A stretch of DNA of 64,000 nucleotides, from positions 77,438 to 141,437 of the forward strand of contig JANXCV010000004.1 of NCBI GenBank assembly GCA_025059235.1, written 5' to 3'. The position numbers were made by a program, and so were the translations under genes. Under the pieces are notes generated by a model. It worked only from the letters and a program-made list of their open reading frames with translations. It searched no databases and was not told where the DNA came from. This DNA comes from Candidatus Calescibacterium sp. (GTDB lineage Bacteria; DRYD01). This document shows positions 30,497-38,205 of the stretch, piece after piece. Every line of letters starts with the position of its first letter. Positions within the stretch are counted from its first letter, which is position 1.

Positions 30497-31660
30497 ATGG
30501 GGGTAGAAATTATTATGAATATACAAAAAATCGATATTTCCAGAAGTAACTACAAAAGTAGTAACAGATTGAAATTCCTTAATTCTGAGGAAGTAATATC
30601 TACCGAAGTCGATATTATTCTAAAAGCCAAGGAAACTATACACATAGCCAAATATAGTTTCAACAGTATGTTATTGGCAAACCTTTTAGTTCAGAAGGCA
30701 AGAGAAGGAGTTAAGGTCAGAGTTGTTATAGATCCCTTTTCTCTTATAAGCGGCGGTAAAGAATGGGAAAAAAGGAAATATGTAGTAGAATATTTGAAGT
30801 CTAATGGTGTAGAAGTTCAAATTTTCCCAGTTGTCCCTGTGAGAAATTTTGTCTCTCCTATGGAAACAAACACCTATGTTTTACAAAGTGATAATGAAAG
30901 TAAACAAGAGGACTATGAGACTAAGAATAATTATCAACTTATGCACGCTAAATATGTTTCTGTAGATGGAAAGAGAGCTGTAATTTCTGGAGTGAATTGG
31001 TCAGATAATAGTTTTAAAAATACTGATGCAGGAATATTCGTTGAAGGAAAAGTTATAGATGATTTGGAAAAGTTCTTCTGGGTTTTATTTAAGAAATCAG
31101 GAGGTACAGATTTTGAATATATCCCAAGAGCTGAAGAAGTAGGAAATTCAAATGCTTCTCTTTTAGTTGCAGACAAAGATATTCCAAATACGAACTATGC
31201 TGAAGCAGTATATAATGCAGTAAAAAATGCTCAGAAAATGATACATGTTAGTGCTTTTGTTCTATCAGACCCCTATCTTATAAAATTACTGATTGAAGCT
31301 CATAATAGAGGAGTAGAAGTTAAAGTTATAATGGATCCAAACAATTCACCCTCATATACTAATCCCAATTACAATACAGAAAAAAAGCTAAAGGAAGCAG
31401 GTATTATCCCACGTTGGTATAAGGTACAAAGCTATAATACTAGCTTGGGTAACTTCTTACACACTAAAATGCTAATAGCAGATAATACTCTAATAATAGG
31501 TAGTGGAAACTTTTCGTATCGTGGTCTTAGAATTAATCACGAAGTTGGAATACAAACTGACGATCCAAATACAGTTTCGGAAGCTATTAAGTACTTCCTA
31601 AAAATATGGAAAGAAAATACTACCATTGTACCTATGAATTACGATGTTAACTATTCTTAA
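30497..31660 (+). CDS. Phospholipase D-superfamily protein (two HKD motifs)
   Basis: HAKYVSVD...SGVNWS and HTKMLIAD...GSGNFS; true start may be ATG 30515. Confidence 0.88.
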   Translation: MGVEIIMNIQKIDISRSNYKSSNRLKFLNSEEVISTEVDIILKAKETIHIAKYSFNSMLLANLLVQKAREGVKVRVVIDPFSLISGGKEWEKRKYVVEYLKSNGVEVQIFPVVPVRNFVSPMETNTYVLQSDNESKQEDYETKNNYQLMHAKYVSVDGKRAVISGVNWSDNSFKNTDAGIFVEGKVIDDLEKFFWVLFKKSGGTDFEYIPRAEEVGNSNASLLVADKDIPNTNYAEAVYNAVKNAQKMIHVSAFVLSDPYLIKLLIEAHNRGVEVKVIMDPNNSPSYTNPNYNTEKKLKEAGIIPRWYKVQSYNTSLGNFLHTKMLIADNTLIIGSGNFSYRGLRINHEVGIQTDDPNTVSEAIKYFLKIWKENTTIVPMNYDVNYS

Positions 31661-31709
31661 AATAAAATTAAGAAGGAAGAAGGGGAAAAGTGTAGAAGTT
31701 TTAAAAAAA

Positions 31710-31784
31710 GGGGACGTAGTTCAGCCCGGTCAGAACGTTGGCCTGTCACGCCAAAGGTCGCGGGTTCAAATCCCGTCGTCCCCG
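31710..31784 (+). tRNA. tRNA-Asp(GTC), CCA not encoded
   Basis: Acceptor GGGGACG/CGTCCCC, anticodon arm TTGGC-CTGTCAC-GCCAA, T-loop GGTTCAAATCC, discriminator G followed by CTC. Confidence 0.97.
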
Positions 31785-32128: not shown

Positions 32129-32812
32129 ATGAAAATCTATGAATTCCTAATAGGCTTTTTTGTGGGAATTCTTGTAATATCAAACGTAGTTACTATAAAA
32201 GTTTTTCAGATCAAACTCGGTGATTTGGAACTGGTATTCGATGGAGGTGCTCTGATATTTCCAATATCTTATGTACTTGCCGATATTTTTACAGAAGTCT
32301 ATGGATATAAAAAAGCGAGAAAAATAATATGGATAGGCTTTTTTGTATTAATCATTTTTAACGTAATACTTTATTTAACTATTATTTTACCTCCTGAACC
32401 TAATTGGAACTCTAGCATAGGCCAAGAAAATTTCGAAAAAGTGCTGGGAATCAGCCCAAGAATAGCATTAGCAGGAATAATCGGATATTTCTGGGGAGAG
32501 TTTACTAACTCCTTTATCTTAGCTAAGATGAAAATTAATACCAAGGGAAAGTATCTGTGGCAAAGGGTAATATTCTCTACTCTCTTAGGACAATTGGTTG
32601 ATACTATAATTTTTTGTACCATAGCTTTTGGGGGAATACTAGATACTAAAACCCTGATTAACTATATAGTAACAGGATATTTCTATAAAGTAACCATTGA
32701 GGTTCTCCTGAGTCCGCTTACTGTAAAAACCATAAATCAGATAAAAAAAATAGAAAATGTTGACCATTATGATTACAACACTAACTTCAATCCCTTCTGG
32801 ATAGGTGATTGA
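32129..32812 (+). CDS. Queuosine precursor transporter (YhhQ/VUT family)
   Basis: ISNVVTIK, D..TEVYGYKKAR, RIALAG..G, and R...STL.GQLVDT motifs. Confidence 0.88.
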   Translation: MKIYEFLIGFFVGILVISNVVTIKVFQIKLGDLELVFDGGALIFPISYVLADIFTEVYGYKKARKIIWIGFFVLIIFNVILYLTIILPPEPNWNSSIGQENFEKVLGISPRIALAGIIGYFWGEFTNSFILAKMKINTKGKYLWQRVIFSTLLGQLVDTIIFCTIAFGGILDTKTLINYIVTGYFYKVTIEVLLSPLTVKTINQIKKIENVDHYDYNTNFNPFWIGD

Positions 32813-33539
32813 AATGAGAAAAATTTATCATTCTAACAGAAACACGTTTATGATTATAAAAGACGAACCTAAAAATTTGGAATATCTAATAAGTAATATA
32901 GATGGAATCATTTTTATCGATAAAATCCTGAATAATACTGTGTTCTTTGATCTATTCAACAGGGATGGTAGTAGAGCAGAAGTTTCAGGAAATGGATTAG
33001 CTTGTTTGACCTACCTTTTATCCAAACTCTTAAAATACCAAGAATACATATTAATTAACTCATTCTTTCCCGACAAAGTTTTTTACTCCAAAGTCTTGGA
33101 AAATGAAATTATCGTTGGATTTGATTTGTCTTACGTAAGAGTTGAAGAAATAATTATTGCTTCTGACAAGATGTACAGATTGTCTATCCCAAATCCTCAT
33201 ATAGTTTTCCCCATGTTTCAATCAAAGGAAGATAGGGCTATTAAAAAGGCTGAGGAAATATACAATTATTTTAAAAAATCAATAAATGTTCATGCTTTTG
33301 ATGTATCGAGAATGTATATGTATACTTTTGAAAGGGGAGTCGGCTGGACAGAATCTTGTGGAAGCGGAGCAATTGCTTGTGCGTATATATACCAAAATCT
33401 CCTCTCAAACAACACTCAACATTTTGTACTAACCATAAGATCACAAGGAGGAGAAATAAAAATAACTATTGAAAATAATACCTATTGGATGAGTTCAAAT
33501 CCGCACGAAATACAAGAGGAATCCATCTCTATGCTATAG
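32805..33539 (+). CDS. dapF: Diaminopimelate epimerase-like protein (first catalytic Cys replaced by Ser)
   Basis: NRDGSRAEVSGNG, IPNPH and ERGVGWTESCGSGA, then SQGG. Confidence 0.75.
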   Translation: MIEMRKIYHSNRNTFMIIKDEPKNLEYLISNIDGIIFIDKILNNTVFFDLFNRDGSRAEVSGNGLACLTYLLSKLLKYQEYILINSFFPDKVFYSKVLENEIIVGFDLSYVRVEEIIIASDKMYRLSIPNPHIVFPMFQSKEDRAIKKAEEIYNYFKKSINVHAFDVSRMYMYTFERGVGWTESCGSGAIACAYIYQNLLSNNTQHFVLTIRSQGGEIKITIENNTYWMSSNPHEIQEESISML

Positions 33540-33565
33540 AAATACAAAAAGGACGGGGGTACAAG

Positions 33566-33781
33566 ATGAAAAAAGCAAAAAAAGTTAAACTTAAAACAAA
33601 AAGAAGTATCGTCAAAAGGTTTAAAATCACAGCTAAAGGAAAAATATTACACAAGCAAACTAATACCGGCTGTGGACACCTAAGAAGAAAAAAAAGTAAA
33701 GCAACTAAAAGAAGACAAAAATTGTACGTAGAAGTACCAAAATACGCATATAAAAACCTAAGAAATATTCTTCCTTTGTAG
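33566..33781 (+). CDS. rpmI: 50S ribosomal protein L35
   Basis: KLKTKRSIVKRFKITAKGKI...HLRRKKS; ATG at 33566. Confidence 0.9.
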   Translation: MKKAKKVKLKTKRSIVKRFKITAKGKILHKQTNTGCGHLRRKKSKATKRRQKLYVEVPKYAYKNLRNILPL

Positions 33782-33782
33782 A

Positions 33783-33824
33783 ATACCGCTTGTTGGGCAA
33801 AGCGGTATATAAATAGCCCAACAA
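33783..33824 (+). ncRNA. Candidate H-type pseudoknot RNA element, copy 1
   Basis: Stem 1 ATACCGCT (33783-90) with AGCGGTAT (33801-08); stem 2 TGTTGGGC (33791-98) with GCCCAACA (33816-23); linker TATAAATA. Confidence 0.6.
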
Positions 33825-33836
33825 AAAAAGGTAAGT

Positions 33837-34178
33837 ATGCAAAACGTAGATAAATCTTCCTACAGAGTTGTCTATATAACGTGCCCGAATATCAATGATG
33901 CAGAAAATATTGCCCGTATACTAGTTAACAATAGGATAGCAGCGTGTGTAAATATCCTTCCAAACGTCAGGTCAGTATACACATGGCGAGATAAAGTAGA
34001 AGAAGCAGAAGAGGTAATCCTGATAATAAAAACCGTCGAGGATAACCTAGAACTCTTAGAAGAAACCGTAAAAAAATATCATCCCTATACTGTACCTGAA
34101 ATCATATCCTGGCCCATCAAATCAGGAAATATAGAGTACTTAAAGTGGATGAATGAAGTCACAAATGTATCTGTATAA
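33837..34178 (+). CDS. cutA: Divalent-cation tolerance protein CutA
   Basis: LAACVN-like IAACVNI, SVYTW..KVEE..E and HPYTVPEI motifs. Confidence 0.93.
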   Translation: MQNVDKSSYRVVYITCPNINDAENIARILVNNRIAACVNILPNVRSVYTWRDKVEEAEEVILIIKTVEDNLELLEETVKKYHPYTVPEIISWPIKSGNIEYLKWMNEVTNVSV

Positions 34179-36293: not shown

Positions 36294-37571
36294 ATGAATA
36301 GAAAAAAAACTATCCAAGAGTTCATATACCTTCAGGAAAGAGATACACATGTTTTAGCTTACCCCTTTAAAGTAATATACAAAAAAGTTAATAATCCTAT
36401 AAGCTTTATTGCTTTTTTTACCAAAGTAGGATCAATTTATGAGAAGGATGATATAAAAGGGATATCTCATCTTATAGAACACTGTGTTTTTAGGGGATCT
36501 AAGAATTACCCCAGTGGTATATCCAAACTAATAAATAATCTTGGTGGATATACAAACGCTTATACATCATACGACCAAACTGTGTATTATATAAATTTAC
36601 CCACGTCTTCACTTTTCCAAGCAATCGATATACTATGGGATATGGTTTTTAATCCTATTTTTGACGATGAAACTATAGAATCAGAAAAGAATATTATTTA
36701 TCATGAGATAGAGATGAGAGATGATGAACCCATGGTAGTCCTATTCGAAGAAACCCTAAAGAAAATGTATACTAAGAATCCGATAAGGGATCCGATTATA
36801 GGCTACAAAGAAACTCTTGAAAATATAACCCAGAAACACATATGGGATTTTTATTCTTACTATAAAAATCCAAACAACTCATTTTTTGTTATTGTTACAG
36901 ACGAAGATTTAAATCGGGTAAGAGAAAAACTCGACAAGGTATTTCAAAATTTTGACTACAATCATAAAGAATTTGATCTAAAATATGACGGGAACGACTA
37001 TGTTAATCAAGGAAGGTTAGATCTAAAAGGAAACGTAAACAAAACCTATCTGATGATTTCTTACAAAGCCCCGACACTAACTGAAAAATATAAAGATATA
37101 GAAAAGTCCTATTATCTTTCGATGGCAAGCTATATCTTAGCAGGATCTTCCTATAGTATCTTAAATCGCATTCTTAAAAATGATCTGAAAATCGTCGATA
37201 CTGTCTCTTTTGATATCTATTCAACTAATCAACTACCAGGAATAATATATTTTGCAGCAGTTTTAGATTCTAAAAATATCCAAAAAGTAATAGAAAATTA
37301 CTCTAAGATAATAAAAAACTTTAGATCCTATGTTGAAATCTCCTATTTTGATGTTGTAAAAGAAAATTTTTATAGTTCGACGTTTTGGAATTTTGAGACT
37401 TCTTCAAACCAAGGGATGCTAATAGGCTCAAATGAACTTTTTAAAAGCTATAGAGAAGCTTATACCTATTTGAGTAAAATAGAGAAAATACAATTAAAAG
37501 ATATGTACGATGTTTTTTACGAATATGTTGACCCGGATAACTTTTTCTTATCAATATATGAAAAAACTTGA
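36294..37571 (+). CDS. M16-family zinc metallopeptidase (active subunit)
   Basis: GISHLIEH (HxxEH), NAYTSYDQTVY, and EK.II..E motifs. Confidence 0.9.
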   Translation: MNRKKTIQEFIYLQERDTHVLAYPFKVIYKKVNNPISFIAFFTKVGSIYEKDDIKGISHLIEHCVFRGSKNYPSGISKLINNLGGYTNAYTSYDQTVYYINLPTSSLFQAIDILWDMVFNPIFDDETIESEKNIIYHEIEMRDDEPMVVLFEETLKKMYTKNPIRDPIIGYKETLENITQKHIWDFYSYYKNPNNSFFVIVTDEDLNRVREKLDKVFQNFDYNHKEFDLKYDGNDYVNQGRLDLKGNVNKTYLMISYKAPTLTEKYKDIEKSYYLSMASYILAGSSYSILNRILKNDLKIVDTVSFDIYSTNQLPGIIYFAAVLDSKNIQKVIENYSKIIKNFRSYVEISYFDVVKENFYSSTFWNFETSSNQGMLIGSNELFKSYREAYTYLSKIEKIQLKDMYDVFYEYVDPDNFFLSIYEKT

Positions 37572-37573
37572 TT

Positions 37574-37611
37574 TACCGCTTGCCTAGGTGGCGGAATATA
37601 AATAACCTAGG
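37574..37611 (+). ncRNA. Candidate H-type pseudoknot RNA element, copy 2
   Basis: Stem 1 CCGCT (37576-80) with GGCGG (37590-94); stem 2 CCTAGGT (37583-89) with ACCTAGG (37605-11); linker TATAAATA. Confidence 0.6.
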
Positions 37612-37635
37612 AATTAAAAAATAAGGAGAGAGAAT

Positions 37636-38205
37636 ATGGACAACGACCCAAAACAAATAATAAACTCGATGAAAAAACAAATGGACGAAGCTATAAACTA
37701 TCTCATAAAGGAATATAGATCCTTAAGAACTGGAAGGGCTTCACCTTCCCTAGTTGAAGATCTAAAAGTAGAATACCACGGAGCAATAGTTCCTCTTAAA
37801 AGCCTGGCTTCCATCTCCATTCCTGATCCCAGAATGATAGTCATTCAACCATTTGATAGAGGTTCTATCTCAGCTATAGAAAAGGCCATACAAAAGTCTA
37901 ACCTCTCCCTTAACCCACAAGTAGAAGGAAATCTAATAAGAATAATAATACCTAGGTTAACCGAAGAAAACAGAAAACAACTATCAAAAGTTATCTCACA
38001 AAAAGCAGAAGAAATAAAACAATCAATAAGAAACGCAAGAAGAGATGCAATGGAAAAAATAAAAGATCTAGCAAAAAAACAAAAAGTCATATCCGAAGAC
38101 GAATCCAATCGATACCAAAAAGAAATAGAAAAAATAACAAAAGAATACCTAGATAAGGTAGAAAAACATACTGAAGAAAAAAATAAGGAAATACTAAATA
38201 TCTGA
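37636..38205 (+). CDS. frr: Ribosome recycling factor
   Basis: LRTGRASP, IQPFD, PRLTEENRK and IRNARRD motifs. Confidence 0.97.
   Translation: MDNDPKQIINSMKKQMDEAINYLIKEYRSLRTGRASPSLVEDLKVEYHGAIVPLKSLASISIPDPRMIVIQPFDRGSISAIEKAIQKSNLSLNPQVEGNLIRIIIPRLTEENRKQLSKVISQKAEEIKQSIRNARRDAMEKIKDLAKKQKVISEDESNRYQKEIEKITKEYLDKVEKHTEEKNKEILNI

Follow-up and report, generated by a model that had tools for sequence, protein, structure and literature searches.

The 64,000-nucleotide stretch of the Candidatus Calescibacterium sp. genome analyzed here (the window; contig JANXCV010000004.1, positions 77,438 to 141,437 of the forward strand) carries two copies of a small RNA element, an H-type pseudoknot about 45 nucleotides (nt) in length, each situated between a stop codon and the start codon of the following gene. 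All features at the two sites are encoded on the forward strand, and their boundaries were assigned from the sequence, from comparison of copies and, for the arms of stem 2, from a model-based alignment. Copy 1 follows rpmI (33566–33781), an open reading frame (ORF) for ribosomal protein L35 assigned by a Pfam Ribosomal_L35p match on an identical gene. The rpmI stop codon, TAG (33779–33781), ends 2 nt before TACCGCTTG, which lies at 33784 in copy 1; position 33782, 4 nt upstream of stem 1, is an A found in 71 of the 75 copies described below. The nearly invariant 5′ arm of stem 1 (CCGC; 33786–33789) pairs with the 3′ arm GCGG (33802–33805). Between them lie the 5′ arm of stem 2 (TTGTTGGGC; 33790–33798), whose first 2–3 nt may instead belong to loop 1, and loop 2 (AAA; 33799–33801). 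Loop 3 (TATATAAATA; 33806–33815; family consensus WAUAHAAAUA) is followed by the 3′ arm of stem 2 (GCCCAACAA; 33816–33824) and by an A-rich spacer of 12 nt (AAAAAGGTAAGT; 33825–33836) that leads to the start codon of cutA (33837–34178), an ORF assigned to the CutA1 family and the gene served by copy 1.

Copy 2 follows an ORF for an M16-family peptidase (36294–37571), whose TGA stop codon (37569–37571) also ends 2 nt before TACCGCTTG, here starting at 37574. It is one of the four copies that lack the A at −4. Its stem 1 arms are CCGC (37576–37579) and GCGG (37591–37594), the latter preceded by a single-nucleotide loop 2 (G; the two together span 37590–37594). Loop 1 is TTG (37580–37582), the stem 2 arms are CCTAGGT (37583–37589) and ACCTAGG (37605–37611), and loop 3 is AATATAAATA (37595–37604). 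The A-rich spacer of copy 2 is 24 nt long (37612–37635) and contains the Shine-Dalgarno sequence AAGGAGAGAG (37623–37632); the gene served is frr (37636–38205), an ORF identified as ribosome recycling factor by the Pfam RRF model. The letters and neighboring genes of both copies agree with those quoted in the initial annotation of this DNA, which was made from the sequence alone. No promoter- or terminator-like site was predicted at either window copy in a consensus scan. A sigma-70-type promoter, which would have two hexamers 16–18 bp apart and a −10 hexamer of the form TAnnnT, was rejected for the reasons given below and because the scan gave no site at either copy, and an intrinsic terminator was rejected given that the sequence after the element is an A-rich spacer (50% A) and not a U-tract. 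The gene order around copy 1 (32805–34178) is unusual in that a dapF-like gene precedes rpmI and cutA comes after it; the usual infC-rpmI-rplT order is absent and rplT is not adjacent.

The source assembly (1.39 Mb, 33% G+C, 30 contigs) and related genomes were searched with the pattern (CCGC or GCGC)-N7-20-(GCGG or GCGC)-[ATG]ATA-N-A[AGT]. The source genome gave 22 matches. Each of seven genomes of the genus contained 13–29 and each of three sister-genus genomes 12–15, so that the element occurs in all 10 genomes of the Ca. Calescibacterium family at 12–29 copies per genome. The reversed pattern, used as a control, gave no matches in the family genomes. In 20 outgroup genomes and in the sister family, the next one within the order, the pattern occurred at background level. 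The sister family gave 1–2 matches that are not members; the two in its genome G010 have no stem 2. The recA gene of G010 sits at a contig end, and its upstream region was left out of the comparison. A covariance model built from six copies recovered the known copies in the source genome and little else. The 75 copies analyzed in detail comprise the 22 in the source genome and 53 from three relatives. A further pseudoknot-like copy, CCGC-TAGGTTTGGG-TAAG-AATATAAATAA-CCCCAAGCTTA, lacks the GCGG arm; it is antisense within a 667-codon ORF with no gene after it (contig C11:201595–201642, minus strand) and may be a decayed copy or an antisense RNA. Two small contigs of the assembly, C28 and C29 (1.5–1.7 kb), hold G+C-rich rRNA and tRNA fragments, among them another 16S 3′ end that is flanked differently, and look like contamination from another organism.

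At the gathering threshold, Rfam identified only two tRNAs in the window and no family for the element. Permissive thresholds returned only chance-level matches for copy 2 (E about 1–6). These included a viral 3′ untranslated region pseudoknot (SBRMV1 UPD-PKf, RF01107), which was rejected because its score of 14.2 bits against a threshold of 39 (E = 2) reflects a chance likeness of GCCGCU..GCGGAUUAUAAAU. The preQ1-I riboswitch (RF00522) resembles the element in size, topology, A-rich loop 3 and location just upstream of a start codon, but scored only 12.5 bits against a gathering score of 39. Conservation in preQ1-I falls in stem 2 and loop residues, and here in stem 1 and loop 3; unlike preQ1-I, the element does not hold the Shine-Dalgarno sequence in stem 2, and its targets are housekeeping genes rather than genes for queuosine biosynthesis or transport. 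A literature search on Calescibacterium/Calescamantes and on pseudoknot enhancers found no description of the motif. The suggestion in the initial annotation that this was a candidate for an undescribed system is therefore upheld by the lack of a matching Rfam family, and the conclusion that the element constitutes a new RNA family, missing from Rfam 15 and from the literature searched, is well supported.

Comparison of the copies yielded the consensus A-NNN-CCGC-U-(loop 1, 0–5 nt)-stem 2 5′ arm-(A-rich loop 2, mostly 0–5 nt)-GCGG-WAUAHAAAUA-stem 2 3′ arm. In every one of the 75 copies, a segment of 5–10 nt between CCGC and GCGG is complementary to the segment that follows loop 3, and the sequence of this stem differs in every copy, in the source genome and in its relatives. 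The complementarity is specific to each copy, since swapped loops and tails reached the observed mean in 0 of 20,000 permutations. When the pseudoknotted structure was evaluated on a model-based alignment of 77 rows, 95.6% of cells paired, versus 66.9% after shuffling; the covariation score was 0.611 versus 0.138 (0/500 shuffles) and fell to 0.04–0.15 with partners slid by 1–3 columns. All eight modeled stem 2 pairs show changes on both sides, in an alignment that was itself fitted to stem 2. Orthologous genes in the two genera retain the element with different stem 2 sequences (jag, cutA, recA, acpP, the STAS protein gene, rpsD, and frr); at jag, for example, the stem reads GGGGTTTT, CGGGGT, GGCTGGTTAA, or GCTGGTT. 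The observation made from the two window copies, that stem 2 changes its sequence and keeps its pairing, thus holds throughout the family. Stem 1 by itself says little because it is almost invariant: CCGC/GCGG is present in 74 of the 75 aligned copies and the remaining one is doubly compensated (GCGC/GCGC). An initial scan for stem 1 variants was too permissive and gave more than 1,000 meaningless matches; the stricter rules then applied identified two divergent but otherwise typical copies, with stem 1 GCAC/GTGC and CCTG/CAGG. The GCAC/GTGC copy (contig C11:226030–226075, plus strand) overlaps the last codons of a 743-codon ORF whose TAA lies in loop 3, and an 85-amino-acid ORF comes after it. 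There is no conservation farther upstream than the A at −4, and stem 1 does not extend into its flanks, complementarity at −1/+1 and −2/+2 being no better than chance. The element is a real H-type RNA pseudoknot with a covarying stem 2, in which stem 1 and loop 3 form a constant core and stem 2 is a gene-specific helix of 5–10 bp. Each helix alone is marginal at 80 °C (+1.4 kcal/mol for stem 1 and −0.3 kcal/mol for stem 2). The fold probably depends on tertiary contacts between loop 3 and stem 1, along which loop 3 probably lies, or on a partner.

Every copy (75/75) is co-oriented with the downstream ORF. The start codon comes a median of 19 nt after the end of stem 2 (interquartile range, 15–23), with 59 of 75 copies at 9–24 nt, and the spacer is 50% A. 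About half of the copies (40) have no Shine-Dalgarno site, and in 34 of these 40 an ATG is found 9–21 nt after stem 2. Longer spacers hold an extra hairpin, as at rplL, rpsD, acs, and sufC. Where the spacer measures 33–64 nt, a small hairpin was seen right after the pseudoknot, both in the relatives (copies L034, L056, L066, L067, L070, L076, and L077) and at rplL, rpsD, and acs of the source genome; such hairpins may serve as operators of individual genes, with S4 or L10/L12 as examples. Most of the genes served, by a wide margin, have abundant housekeeping functions. They include ribosomal protein genes (rpsB, rpsD, rplE, rplL, rplQ, rpmE, and rpmF), genes for translation, transcription, replication, and repair (frr, rpoZ, recA, ssb, and khpB/jag), metabolic genes (acpP, gap, fba, mdh, acs, sufC, ilvE, and those for a GH57 enzyme and a nitroreductase), and cutA and the genes of a STAS protein and an ACT protein. 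The target set varies between genomes: rplE, rpmF, rpsB, rplQ, gap, and sufC have either the element or a strong Shine-Dalgarno site, and gap carries the element in the relative genome G005. The element precedes none of 48 tRNA and transfer-messenger RNA genes. The sequences in front of tRNA genes (31650–31710 in the window, and others in the genome) instead show a G-rich block (GGAGGG/GAAGGGG) about 14–18 nt before a TAGAAT-like −10 box, a pattern that suggests an unusual −35 element of the housekeeping promoter of this lineage.

The initial annotation had attached weight to the spacing of 2 nt from the upstream stop codon, and proposed that folding might report on termination or recycling. 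That spacing is exact at both window copies and does not hold elsewhere, where the stop ranges from 33 nt inside the element to at least 45 nt upstream. In 19 of the 22 source-genome copies, the upstream co-directional ORF ends between 33 nt inside the element and 10 nt before CCGC, and in the other three it ends 23–158 nt away; in the sister genus the nearest upstream stop is 10–45 nt away or not detectable. Because the distance to the stop varies, the basis for a termination-sensing role is removed. The source genome is compact, with 83% of upstream neighbors co-directional and a median spacing of 4 nt, so an element placed before a start codon nearly always abuts the preceding stop. Most copies are intercistronic with no space for a promoter or terminator, and all 22 copies in the source genome follow a co-directional gene. 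In seven canonical source-genome copies, the upstream ORF stops within loop 2 or loop 3, and ribosomes translating that ORF must therefore unfold the pseudoknot. The conserved quantity is the distance to the downstream start codon and not that to the upstream stop.

The relation of the element to Shine-Dalgarno strength was examined in 16 orthologue pairs (11 genes) in which a relative has the pseudoknot and the source genome does not. The orthologues without a pseudoknot always have a very strong Shine-Dalgarno site, with dG values of −9.5 to −17.5 (median −12.3); a dG of −9.5 is reached by only 20–28% of ORFs in the source genome. In each of the 16 pairs, all six of those within the genus among them, the orthologue with the pseudoknot has a weaker site or none (median −5.7; Wilcoxon p = 3e-5). 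Where, as a control, the pseudoknot is present in both members of a pair, Shine-Dalgarno strength did not differ (n = 18, p = 0.65). The pseudoknot and a very strong Shine-Dalgarno site therefore look like interchangeable solutions for the same genes. The 3′ end of 16S rRNA is ordinary (...CACCUCCUUUCU) and, as judged by eye, has no special match to the conserved parts of the element.

A multi-domain ribosomal protein S1 was not found in any of the 10 family genomes. In nine of them, the one match of the rpsA model was to the lone S1 domain of a PNPase-like ORF, and in the tenth it matched nothing; the Pfam S1 model detected only two domains in the source genome, one in the PNPase-like ORF and one in an RNase E/G-like ORF. 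Multi-domain S1 is present in the sister family (G010) and in seven of seven outgroups. That a lineage of free-living hyperthermophiles should have lost bS1 is itself unusual. Among ribonucleases of the source genome, RNase Y is clearly encoded (518 bits; contig C26:13718–15214), an RNase E/G-like ORF of 571 amino acids scores 282 bits, just under the family cut-off of 326 bits, and RNase J was not detected (best match, 23 bits).

We tentatively propose, on the basis of sequence comparisons, that the element may be a cis-acting enhancer of translation initiation that acts independently of S1 and partly independently of Shine-Dalgarno pairing. This reading is preferred because of the trade-off with Shine-Dalgarno strength, the absence of S1 and the precedents of tisB and repZ. 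The element would be transcribed within the mRNA, in a leader or intercistronic spacer right upstream of the ribosome-binding region, and separated from the start codon by the short, unstructured, A-rich spacer. Once folded, the pseudoknot would promote independent initiation at the downstream cistron. It might dock on the 30S subunit close to the mRNA exit and platform, or it might hold the A-rich start region open and present it. It would thereby do the job performed by a very strong Shine-Dalgarno site in orthologues without it, a job with which S1 helps in other bacteria. The structure of the element, where it occurs, its fixed placement before start codons, its trade-off with Shine-Dalgarno strength, and the lack of S1 are results of the comparisons above; that its effect is positive and that the ribosome is its partner are inferences. 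In a bolder form, which we regard as rather unlikely, the family responded to the loss of S1 by evolving a pseudoknot that resembles an internal ribosome entry site (IRES), docking on the 30S subunit with the start codon about 20 nt downstream and requiring neither a Shine-Dalgarno site nor S1.

Leader pseudoknots that act on initiation have been described. The 5′ pseudoknot of tisB mRNA is required for 30S binding and standby initiation (PMC7708055), a need demonstrated with compensatory mutations in stem 2 (PMC7708055; PMC6690012). Like the element described here, the Escherichia coli tisB standby site places an H-type pseudoknot beside a single-stranded stretch of the leader (Romilly, Lippegaus and Wagner 2020, PMC7708055; PMC6690012). 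It differs in that it exists as one copy, lies about 100 nt from a sequestered ribosome-binding site and depends on S1, whereas the present element occurs in 12–29 copies per genome, 9–24 nt from open start regions and with no S1 gene; dependence of the tisB type has no counterpart in the 10 family genomes, none of which has rpsA. A pseudoknot is likewise essential for initiation of RepZ translation (PMC8053102). The repZ/repA activator of IncI1, IncB, and IncK plasmids is similar in placing a pseudoknot just upstream of the ribosome-binding site at a stop-to-start junction. It differs in that its pairing spans a long range, is brought about when a leader peptide is translated, and is prevented by an antisense RNA (Asano and Mizobuchi 1998; Praszkier and Pittard 2002; PMC8053102). 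The element in Ca. Calescibacterium is compact and local, has no known antisense partner and shows no conserved distance to the stop. E. coli rpsO/S15 (PMC3858243, PMC3985624) and phage T4 gene 32 (PMC3014915) also have protein-bound leader pseudoknots, on or near the 30S platform, that control initiation, and an A/U-rich unstructured stretch follows the gene 32 pseudoknot as it does here (PMC3014915). These, however, are single-gene operators that repress their own gene, and here one motif is common to about 25 unrelated genes. The likely mode of action is thus of a known kind. What is new is the scale (one motif before about 12–29 core chromosomal genes), the setting in a hyperthermophile without S1, and the trade-off with Shine-Dalgarno strength.

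Several observations weigh against an initiation enhancer. The orthologue trade-off rests on 11 genes, and its cross-genus part is confounded by base composition (24% vs 33% GC). Across the whole genome, a comparison of pseudoknot genes with background for Shine-Dalgarno strength gives no decision, as the true starts of the background genes are uncertain. The loss of S1 and the pseudoknot represent a single evolutionary event, so their correlation has n = 1. A repressor operator could just as well occupy the position, 9–21 nt before the start codon, at which the element ends. A purely docking or insulating role does not explain why the A at −4 is invariant and loop 3 so strictly conserved, and helices that are marginal at about 80 °C may need a stabilizing partner. 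Contigs in Logan that encode RRF and CutA were exclusively genomic, at 22–25 kb, and none was short and transcript-like.

Two other functions at the RNA level remain, each of which we consider unlikely. One is a post-transcriptional operator, in which the core (stem 1, loop 3, and the A at −4) would be bound by a lineage-specific protein or, as in a riboswitch, by a ligand or ion, so that growth-related genes would be co-regulated, and probably repressed, at the level of translation. Operators such as the iron-responsive element are recognizable by loops of invariant sequence next to a helix that varies freely, and the core is conserved far more than base pairing requires. The architecture is that of small pseudoknot riboswitches such as preQ1-I, the weak helices make a stabilizing partner plausible, the position 9–24 nt before the start codon suits steric repression, and the targets (ribosomal proteins, RRF, RpoZ, RecA, SSB, acyl carrier protein, and glycolysis) resemble a growth-rate regulon. 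That those targets change from genome to genome, however, is more in keeping with an expression device that can be exchanged than with a conserved regulon. No expression platform is visible, since the fold never includes the Shine-Dalgarno sequence or the start codon and is not followed by a terminator; moreover, the targets are too diverse for a metabolite riboswitch and no candidate binding protein was identified. The other is operon maturation or stability, in which RNase Y or the RNase E/G-like enzyme would cut near the A at −4 and the pseudoknot would protect the 5′ end of the downstream cistron; alternatively, or in addition, it would serve as a 3′ block protecting the upstream cistron. 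RNase Y processing of the cggR-gapA operon of Bacillus subtilis and the saePQRS operon of Staphylococcus aureus is guided by, or leaves, a downstream structure that stabilizes the distal mRNA, and in these operons the intercistronic structure sets expression of the distal, more abundant product. Those structures are simple hairpins without the family-wide sequence conservation seen here. In favor of processing, both nucleases are encoded at the scores given above, each of the 22 copies in the source genome comes after a co-directional gene and leaves too little space for a promoter or terminator, acpP, rplL, frr, rpoZ, ssb, recA, and gap are typically needed in larger amounts than their upstream neighbors, and conservation ends abruptly at the A four nt before stem 1, as it would at a defined RNA end. 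Against it, a stabilizer could sit at any distance from the start codon, whereas 59 of 75 copies are found at 9–24 nt, and the trade-off with Shine-Dalgarno strength is not directly predicted. At recA, a tRNA-type promoter (TTGGGT-17-GAGAAT; located by eye) lies about 21 nt upstream, and its transcript would carry about 14 extra nucleotides at the 5′ end. The lack of a detectable RNase J, a 5′-to-3′ exonuclease, also counts against this explanation, and it weakens the proposal of the initial annotation that the pseudoknot could act as an exonuclease-resistant end, in a genome where RNase Y and the RNase E/G-like enzyme are present.

The remaining explanations are less probable still. Coupling of termination to reinitiation, in which the upstream ribosome would melt the pseudoknot and refolding would hand a ribosome to the downstream start, had been raised initially and survives only as a minor reading that seems very unlikely. 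For 19 of the 22 source-genome copies, the upstream stop is located between −33 and +10 nt relative to CCGC, and seven copies have it within loop 2 or loop 3; many downstream genes have no Shine-Dalgarno site, and pseudoknot-dependent reinitiation has a precedent in plasmid repBA/repYZ (Praszkier and Pittard 2002, as cited in PMC8053102). However, the stop spacing of 0–158 nt in the source genome, and of 10–45 nt or beyond detection in the sister genus, shows no constraint, nearness to stops is the default of this genome, and reinitiation cannot exceed the upstream product, yet the targets typically encode the more abundant protein. A signal at the DNA level, either a promoter with loop 3 as its −10 box or a transcription-factor site, is highly improbable. 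Loop 3 (TATAWAAAT) does resemble a −10/TATA element about 30–45 nt upstream of the starts of highly expressed genes, but it lies anywhere from 9 to 18 nt from CCGC, TAnnnT cannot be read in any register of it, there are no conserved upstream hexamers, the tRNA-gene promoters differ (G-rich −35 and TAGAAT), and copy-specific complementarity of stem 2 across loop 3 has no rationale in DNA. Least credible is a small mobile or selfish intergenic repeat without function for the host gene, of the repetitive extragenic palindrome (REP) or miniature inverted-repeat transposable element (MITE) type. The element is multicopy and intergenic and has inverted repeats, and the initial annotation had reasoned that copies at random distances from stops or in either orientation would favor such a repeat. 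Stop distances are indeed not fixed, but all 75 copies have the orientation of the downstream gene, stem 2 is unique to each copy, copies are kept at orthologous genes across two genera with compensatory change, and terminal repeats and target duplications are absent. A REP/MITE-like repeat was excluded on the grounds of orientation, unique stems, and orthologous conservation.

Selection of start sites in bacteria is usually explained by Shine-Dalgarno pairing, by S1 acting on A/U-rich leaders or by leaderless initiation. If the IRES-like docking envisaged in the bolder proposal were true, it would be a third, structure-based route to canonical (non-leaderless) bacterial initiation, used chromosome-wide for the most highly expressed genes. 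If the element is instead an operator or a processing signal, it would define a new global post-transcriptional regulon. An uncultivated family of hyperthermophiles, from hot-spring streamers at about 80 °C, places one small pseudoknot before 12–29 core genes in each genome. Should it prove to be an enhancer that docks on the ribosome, it would provide a 45-nt thermostable part for the control of expression and would show how translation can be organized without S1 at high temperature.

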